Part shown: one piece after another, positions 1,820-1,911 of the stretch | Layout of the letters: every line of letters starts with the position of its first letter | Numbering within the stretch: the stretch's first letter is position 1 | Sequence record: PP079212.1 | Reading direction: 5' to 3' (one strand) | Length of the DNA stretch: 39,299 nucleotides | Source of the DNA: Escherichia phage phiHAO2-2 | The notes under the pieces: model-generated | Databases searched by the model: none | The model's input: only the letters and a program-made list of their open reading frames with translations | Told to the model about the DNA's origin: nothing | Position numbers and translations under genes: made by a program

Positions 1820-1842
1820 ACTTAACTATCACTATAGGACTC
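1820..1842 (+). promoter_or_regulatory. Phage RNAP promoter upstream of the RNAP gene
   Basis: ACTTAACTATCACTATAGGACTC matches the 23-bp promoter consensus of this genome (T7-type CACTATAGG core). Predicted +1 G at 1837. Confidence 0.65.
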
Positions 1843-1911
1843 AAGGTCTAAGACTCCAAGTGAAAGACCAAAGAGACTTTAAGTGAAAGACTAATAACAA
1901 GGACTTTAAGT

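Follow-up and report, generated by a model that had tools for sequence, protein, structure and literature searches.

Introduction

Our picture of how T7-like phages express gene 1, the gene for their single-subunit RNA polymerase (RNAP), derives from T7 itself. Promoters read by the T7 enzyme have the consensus TAATACGACTCACTATA followed by GGGAGA, and A at -2 marks the weaker class II promoters. Genes 0.7 and 1 are separated by an RNase III site, and the phage RNAP is inhibited by the gp3.5 lysozyme. In the T7 record, the phage promoter phiOL is placed at nt 405, the minor E. coli promoter C at 3113 and gene 1 at 3171, and no cognate promoter stands in the last 600 nt or so before gene 1 in T7, or in T3-like and K11-like relatives.

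Promoters for the phage's own polymerase have been placed ahead of the RNAP gene in other phages. Pseudomonas phage gh-1, which has a T7-like (Studiervirinae) genome, carries a site annotated 'phi1; putative gh-1 RNAP promoter' (NC_004665 939-961) about 100 nt ahead of its RNAP gene, co-oriented with it and identical to the gh-1 consensus. A phage-specific promoter, also called phi1, precedes the RNAP gene of LUZ100, for which positive feedback was proposed by the authors. In Vibrio phage phiA318, promoter phi-A8 lies ahead of the RNAP gene and 'autoregulation' has been proposed (PMC4099482). Self-amplification has been modelled for T7, and the logic of autogene circuits has been discussed in this context (PMC3737178). 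We found no SP6 promoter ahead of the SP6 RNAP gene within 3 mismatches, and no such promoter is annotated in VP4 or MmP1.

Closer to the phage considered here, the homologous site in Citrobacter phage CR44b (NC_023576 1814-1836) and the promoter ahead of gene 1 in CR8 are each annotated as a 'predicted promoter' in GenBank, and the two GenBank records of K1F carry no promoter annotation. Temme et al. predicted a K1F promoter block from genomes of the K1F subfamily and placed it into the T7 promoter, where it was active and orthogonal in combination with a T7 RNAP equipped with the specificity loop of K1F (PMC3458549). Native K1F RNAP and the PK1F promoter also form an orthogonal expression pair in vivo (PMC12218169). 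In the literature searched, we found neither transcript, 5'-end or in vitro data on the gene 1 promoter of any Kayfunavirus nor transcriptomic data for K1F-like phages.

Here, we describe the region ahead of gene 1 in Escherichia phage phiHAO2-2, considering the whole 39,299-nt stretch (the window), which is a complete K1F-like coliphage genome (genus Kayfunavirus, Studiervirinae). Its first 5 kb are 93-97% identical to Escherichia phages phiHAO1-1, vB_EcoP_F and K1F.

Results

Early region of the genome

Gene order in the window is that of T7. Small early ORFs follow ocr and precede gene 1, after which come ligase, gp2, gp3.5 and further genes, and the series closes with a tailspike ORF of 1064 aa (32408-35602) that occupies the slot of the K1F endosialidase gene 17. 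The best sigma-70-like early promoter, TTGACA-18-TAGTAT on the plus strand at 459-488, is a consensus match only; the first gene 1 mRNA, made by the host enzyme, probably originates here. The last early ORF (1554-1814, plus strand) is a homologue of K1F gp0.38 (phrog_7066, function unknown). No match to a gp0.7-type kinase was found among the ORFs ahead of gene 1. After the ligase gene, a TE-like intrinsic terminator hairpin followed by TCTTT (6994-7021, plus strand; -19.4 kcal/mol, z = -4.8) closes the early unit that the host enzyme transcribes. Two plus-strand genes further on are relevant to the control of transcription, one for a gp2-like inhibitor of host RNA polymerase (7857-8033; phrog_1307, E = 1.2e-24) and one for a gp3.5-like amidase/lysozyme (9635-10093; phrog_822, E = 1.2e-79).

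Searches of the phage collection also returned PV615262 (Acinetobacter phage vB_Aba_01KA) and OR786095 (Staphylococcus phage MBBL139), which are 79-94% identical to the early and gene 1 region. Either the Acinetobacter and Staphylococcus host labels of these records are wrong or the isolates are contaminants, as seems probable.

A phage-type promoter ahead of gene 1

A sequence-only reading of this DNA had placed a consensus-like promoter 75 bp ahead of the RNAP start codon, and our analysis bears this out: ACTTAACTATCACTATAGGA lies on the plus strand at 1820-1839, with +1 at G1837 and the ATG at 1912. We refer to the full element, -17 to +6 (1820-1842), as phi1; its motif matches those of the other sites described below and it is identical in K1F. 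It carries the specificity block ACTAT at -12 to -8, the core CACTATA and a class II-like initiating sequence, GGACTC. The core from -7 to +2, CACTATAGG, spans 1830-1838, and the transcription start at G1837 is predicted from alignment to the T7 consensus and to the 11 sites of the window. The stop codon of ORF 1554-1814 falls 5 nt ahead of phi1, which is therefore intergenic. Since both its ACTAT block, the one active with the K1F loop in the work of Temme et al. (PMC3458549), and its CACTATAGG core match the K1F promoter, the site can be assigned, on the basis of its sequence, as the promoter for the phage's own single-subunit RNAP.

Allowing up to 3 mismatches, ACTTAACTATCACTATAGGA has 10 matches in the window, all on the plus strand, against 0.00 expected from 100 shuffles. 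A weight matrix built from these 10 sites was used to rescan the window, in which phi1 scored 35.8 bits, mid-range with respect to the other nine strong sites (33.8-40.3 bits), and an 11th, weaker promoter was recovered (+1 = 10346, 27.7 bits). All 11 copies are intergenic and co-oriented with the genes, with a gene start 34-246 nt downstream. K1F has the same set of 11. The weaker promoter (10326-10351) has the core CACCTTAGG and lies ahead of gene 4, with its counterpart in K1F at 10880. A degenerate second copy (16856-16881, +1 = 16876, 14.9 bits; K1F 17218) was also seen 29 nt past the phi6.5-like promoter. With regard to the initiating bases, GGA at +1 to +3 is common to phi1, the early and middle promoters and the promoters ahead of genes 9 and 17, whereas the phi6.5-, phi10-, phi13- and phiOR-like sites have GGG.

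phi1 is the leftmost phage promoter of the window. No phiOL-like phage promoter was found to the left of it in window positions 1-1800, nor in positions 1-2400 of K1F, and phi1 itself is placed differently from a phiOL-type terminal promoter, lying downstream of the 459-488 promoter and of five early ORFs. A host sigma-70 promoter overlapping phi1, in the manner of T7 promoter C, was also considered and set aside, as the scan revealed none near 1800-1911.

Leader and gene 1

Between the predicted start and the ATG lies a 75-nt leader (1837-1911, plus strand) which is AT-rich, with 37% G+C against roughly 50% for the genome, and unstructured. Its composition is not exceptional among promoter leaders, those of phi6.5 and phi1.5 having 36% and 39% G+C, respectively, and on this ground it was rejected as a replication-origin signature. 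Folding of the leader is no more stable than that of shuffled sequence (z = +0.78), and the same is true of the wider 1740-1930 region (z = +0.18); a consensus fold of six diverse leaders reached only -1.1 kcal/mol and held no compensatory pairs, and Rfam scans of the leader matched no family. A processing site for RNase III resembling T7 R1 was thus rejected for the leader, where neither a stable conserved hairpin nor covariation was seen. No terminator-like site was detected between phi1 and gene 1 in our scan.

The leader does contain short repeated words. A 21-nt direct repeat is found at 1851-1871 (AGACTCCAAGTGAAAGACCAA) and 1874-1894 (AGACTTTAAGTGAAAGACTAA), the copies being 23 nt apart, and three GACT(C/T)(C/T)AAGT words are present, the last of which adjoins the ATG of gene 1. 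The words TAAGACT, AAAGAC and ACTTTAAGT are kept even in the otherwise unalignable leader of CR8. These repeat words could represent a translational enhancer or a protein-binding motif.

Translation of gene 1 is served by a Shine-Dalgarno sequence, AAGGA (1899-1903, plus strand), 8 nt ahead of the ATG and kept in all Kayfunavirus loci. Gene 1 (1912-4593, plus strand) encodes an RNAP of 893 aa whose N-terminus, MSVISIDKHDFS, aligns with MNTINIAKNDFS of T7 and whose specificity loop reads TRLNLMFLGSFNLQPT. It is 98.4% identical to K1F gp1 (879/893 residues), with none of the 14 differences falling within the specificity loop. The locus therefore has the architecture of an autogenous circuit, combining a co-oriented cognate promoter upstream, no intervening terminator and a usable ribosome-binding site.

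Gene 1 and the ORF after it are just 18 nt apart. Between phi1 and the next phage promoter, a phi1.1-like site with +1 at 5370 (5353-5375, plus strand; motif and matrix match), lie gene 1 and ORFs 4612-4812 and 4890-5357. As no other phage promoter is available to these three genes, phi1 is the only site from which the phage enzyme can reach them. ORF 4890-5357, which sits between gene 1 and the phi1.1-like promoter, encodes a 155-aa protein (phrog_8103) of unknown function, and its stop codon (5355-5357) falls inside that promoter.

Conservation and covariation with polymerase specificity

K1F carries an identical 26-mer with +1 at 2491, again 75 nt ahead of gene 1 (the 23-mer is at 2474-2496). 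To look beyond this pair we used 80 IMG/VR loci, all encoding relatives of the window RNAP. Twenty-two of these have an RNAP at least 78% identical to that of the window; one (L040) was left out as the start of its gene 1 is missing. The remaining 21 all have a promoter of their own cognate type ahead of gene 1, with +1 at 75, 76, 81 or 87 nt from the ATG. Among the close relatives, the bases just 5' of -17 vary whilst the 23-mer is constant. In the phage collection, the 112-nt upstream region is present (at least 80% coverage) in 218 records, compared with 221 records that have a Kayfunavirus-type gene 1 5' end. One subgroup, loci L012-L014, L020 and L021, has A at -2, which in these genomes occurs only at the gene 1 promoter and which in T7 is a mark of the weaker, class II promoters.

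Three promoter specificities are found at -12 to -8 among the relatives (ACTAT, ACCCT and GGTAC), and they covary with the specificity loop of the polymerase in three lineages: ACTAT is found with loops of the N..N type, ACCCT with those of the D..R type and GGTAC with the loop of CR8. The copy ahead of gene 1 obeys this rule along with the others. The D..R type is represented by L018 and L044, relatives of Cronobacter phage GW1 and E. coli phage Ro103C3lw, whose RNAP is 88% identical to that of the window. In their loop, TRLDLMFLGTFRLQPT, the two N residues of the window are replaced by the T3-like D and R, and their gene 1 promoter, ATTAAACCCTCACTATAGGA, equals the consensus of all their other promoters, although its flanks are nearly identical to those of phi1. 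In CR8 (L016), the loop differs again and the phage's own promoter, AAGGAAGGTACACTATAGG, lies 87 nt ahead of gene 1 in an upstream region that is unalignable to the window.

The GW1/Ro103C3lw-like phages constitute a subgroup inside Kayfunavirus that has T3-like promoters, AAACCCTCACTATAGG, together with T3-like specificity residues. The region of the AT-rich-recognition loop in L018 and L044 also differs in length from that of the window. Promoter specificity has thus been switched within one genus, possibly by recombination.

More distant relatives present a different arrangement. In the T7-like, T3-like, K11-like and other phages whose RNAP is 58-64% identical to that of the window, the first internal promoter comes just after gene 1, and the only phage promoter ahead of the gene is a terminal one of the phiOL type, 2.5-2.8 kb upstream. 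Given that all 21 closer loci have a cognate promoter at this site and that its specificity block tracks the loop, the promoter can be considered a lineage-specific, working element, and the sequence comparison indicates that it is maintained by selection. Its re-specification together with all other promoters when the specificity loop changed within the genus points the same way, and is the modestly new part of this comparison.

Two further loci gave rise to observations of a different kind. A promoter 617 nt ahead of gene 1 in L042 (IMGVR_UViG_2706796511, 36 kb) was tried as an additional case and rejected, as it proved to be the terminal, phiOL-like promoter in a genome of the T3-like kind. 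In this locus (about 6400-8000), hardly any early genes lie between the genome end and the RNAP gene. In L041, a T7-like phage, 11 tandem copies of a 21-nt unit, AGGAACCACTGAGTATCATTR, are found at about 198-430, some 1.3-1.5 kb ahead of the RNAP gene.

Discussion

The promoter ahead of gene 1 in phiHAO2-2 is an ordinary feature that is fixed in the K1F genus and already present in public annotation. Compared with K1F and other members of Kayfunavirus, the window shows no difference of substance, having the same 23-mer, the same 75-nt distance, the same leader and the same Shine-Dalgarno sequence. The idea of feedback has likewise already been published for other T7-like phages.

In T7, according to the sequence-only reading, gene 1 is transcribed only by the host enzyme and the first phage promoter lies downstream of it. 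This contrast holds in that no phage promoter is immediately adjacent to T7 gene 1, but it has to be amended, since phiOL (nt 405) does precede the gene. Like phi1, phiOL is read by the phage RNAP and points towards gene 1 from upstream; unlike phi1, it is 2.8 kb away from the gene, to the left of the host promoters and adjoining the terminal repeat. T7 promoter C occupies the same slot as phi1, just before gene 1, but is a host promoter. The phi1 of gh-1 differs from that of the window in its specificity, AAACCCTCACTGTGG, and essentially no early genes come before gene 1 in that phage. The gh-1 promoter also overlaps a putative host terminator (Te1) and a host promoter (A4) and is preceded by an RNase III site; the window shows none of these features. 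LUZ100, a temperate-like phage, differs in that a MarR-like repressor is proposed to gate the promoter, and in phiA318 a kinase gene intervenes between promoter and RNAP gene. Neither feature is shared by the window. A synthetic T7 'autogene', and T7 strains in which gene 1 stands behind a T7 promoter, have reportedly been made (Dubendorff & Studier in 1991, Endy et al. in 2000). The logic of auto-amplification is the same in that case, but there it was engineered, whereas here it would be natural and is genus-fixed.

With a cognate, co-oriented promoter directly ahead of gene 1 and neither a terminator nor a stable structure between them, positive feedback is probably the mechanism at work, as judged from this architecture. 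We consider there to be a good probability that phi1 is functional for the K1F-type RNAP and leads to self-amplifying synthesis of the polymerase that is damped later in infection. Host RNA polymerase would start at the left-end sigma-70 promoters and transcribe the early region, including the first gene 1 mRNA. The newly made phage RNAP would then bind phi1, its specificity loop reading ACTAT at -12 to -8, and initiation at G1837 would yield an mRNA with the 75-nt unstructured leader and a normal ribosome-binding site. Such a transcript would be expected to continue through the two small ORFs past gene 1 towards genes 1.1-1.3. Once the gp2 homologue had inhibited host RNA polymerase, synthesis of the phage enzyme would become host-independent and self-amplifying; indeed, given that an inhibitor of this type is encoded, phi1 would be the only route to gene 1 mRNA after host shut-off. 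At a later stage the loop is probably damped by the gp3.5 lysozyme, as in T7: phi1 starts with GGA like the other early and middle promoters, and by analogy with the class II promoters of T7 the gp3.5 homologue (9635-10093) is a candidate for the brake.

Feedback is, however, not automatically beneficial, and conservation shows that phi1 matters, not that feedback on gene 1, as opposed to transcription of the downstream genes, is the selected effect. The promoter could be functional but selected for another role: standing furthest to the left of all phage promoters in a genome that has no phiOL, it might act as a replication origin, aid the processing of concatemers or drive the genes that follow gene 1. 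We regard this as unlikely. The absence of a phiOL-like site left of 1837 in the window and in K1F, where T7- and K11-like relatives have one 2.5-2.8 kb ahead of gene 1, would be in line with such a role, as would the dependence of ORFs 4612-4812 and 4890-5357 on phi1 as their only phage promoter, yet phi1 is situated 1.8 kb inside the genome, past the early promoters and genes, and so not in the phiOL position. In its replication-origin version this explanation calls upon a promoter combined with an AT-rich tract, as in T7 phi1.1A/B, and the leader is AT-rich relative to the genome (37% against roughly 50% G+C), but no more so than the leaders of phi6.5 (36%) or phi1.5 (39%). Moreover, any transcript from phi1 crosses gene 1, so that feedback would follow regardless, and these roles would add to positive feedback rather than exclude it.

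That phi1 is a weak or inactive copy, kept by recent common descent and without effect on the expression of gene 1, appears very unlikely. Most Kayfunavirus genomes are more than 90% identical in this region, so that the sharing of the site among K1F-type phages carries little weight by itself. Against this, the specificity block shifts in step with the RNAP in the GW1-type phages, a promoter is present in CR8 despite its unalignable surroundings and also in gh-1, the 23-mer is constant in close relatives in which the sequence 5' of -17 is not, and the matrix score of phi1 is within the range of the other promoters. A third explanation would make 1837-1911 mainly an RNA element, whether an RNase III site like T7 R1 or a regulatory structure, with the promoter match being incidental. 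An RNase III site does separate genes 0.7 and 1 of T7, one is annotated upstream of phi1 in gh-1, and the leader holds conserved short repeats; but with folding no better than that of shuffled sequence (z = +0.78 and +0.18), a six-leader consensus fold of -1.1 kcal/mol that has no compensatory pairs and no match in Rfam, we would attach almost no probability to it.

Returning to positive feedback, a broader and more tentative proposal can be made. The RNAP gene of K1F-like and CR8-like phages might be a natural 'autogene' in which, after a short priming by the host, nearly all RNAP is made from phi1, and the loop rather than host transcription might time the switch from early to middle expression. 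The loop would then have been rebuilt at each change of specificity, at least twice (from the K1F type to the T3-like GW1 type, and in the CR8 type). We put this forward as a speculation, and consider it somewhat doubtful as it stands.

What these data do correct is a textbook generalisation derived from T7, in that gene 1 is probably not a purely early, host-transcribed gene in the Kayfunavirus, CR8-like and gh-1-like genera. The importance of this is limited; it bears on models of infection timing and on the engineering of K1F-type therapeutic phages, for which insertions near 1820-1911 would disturb the expression of the polymerase.
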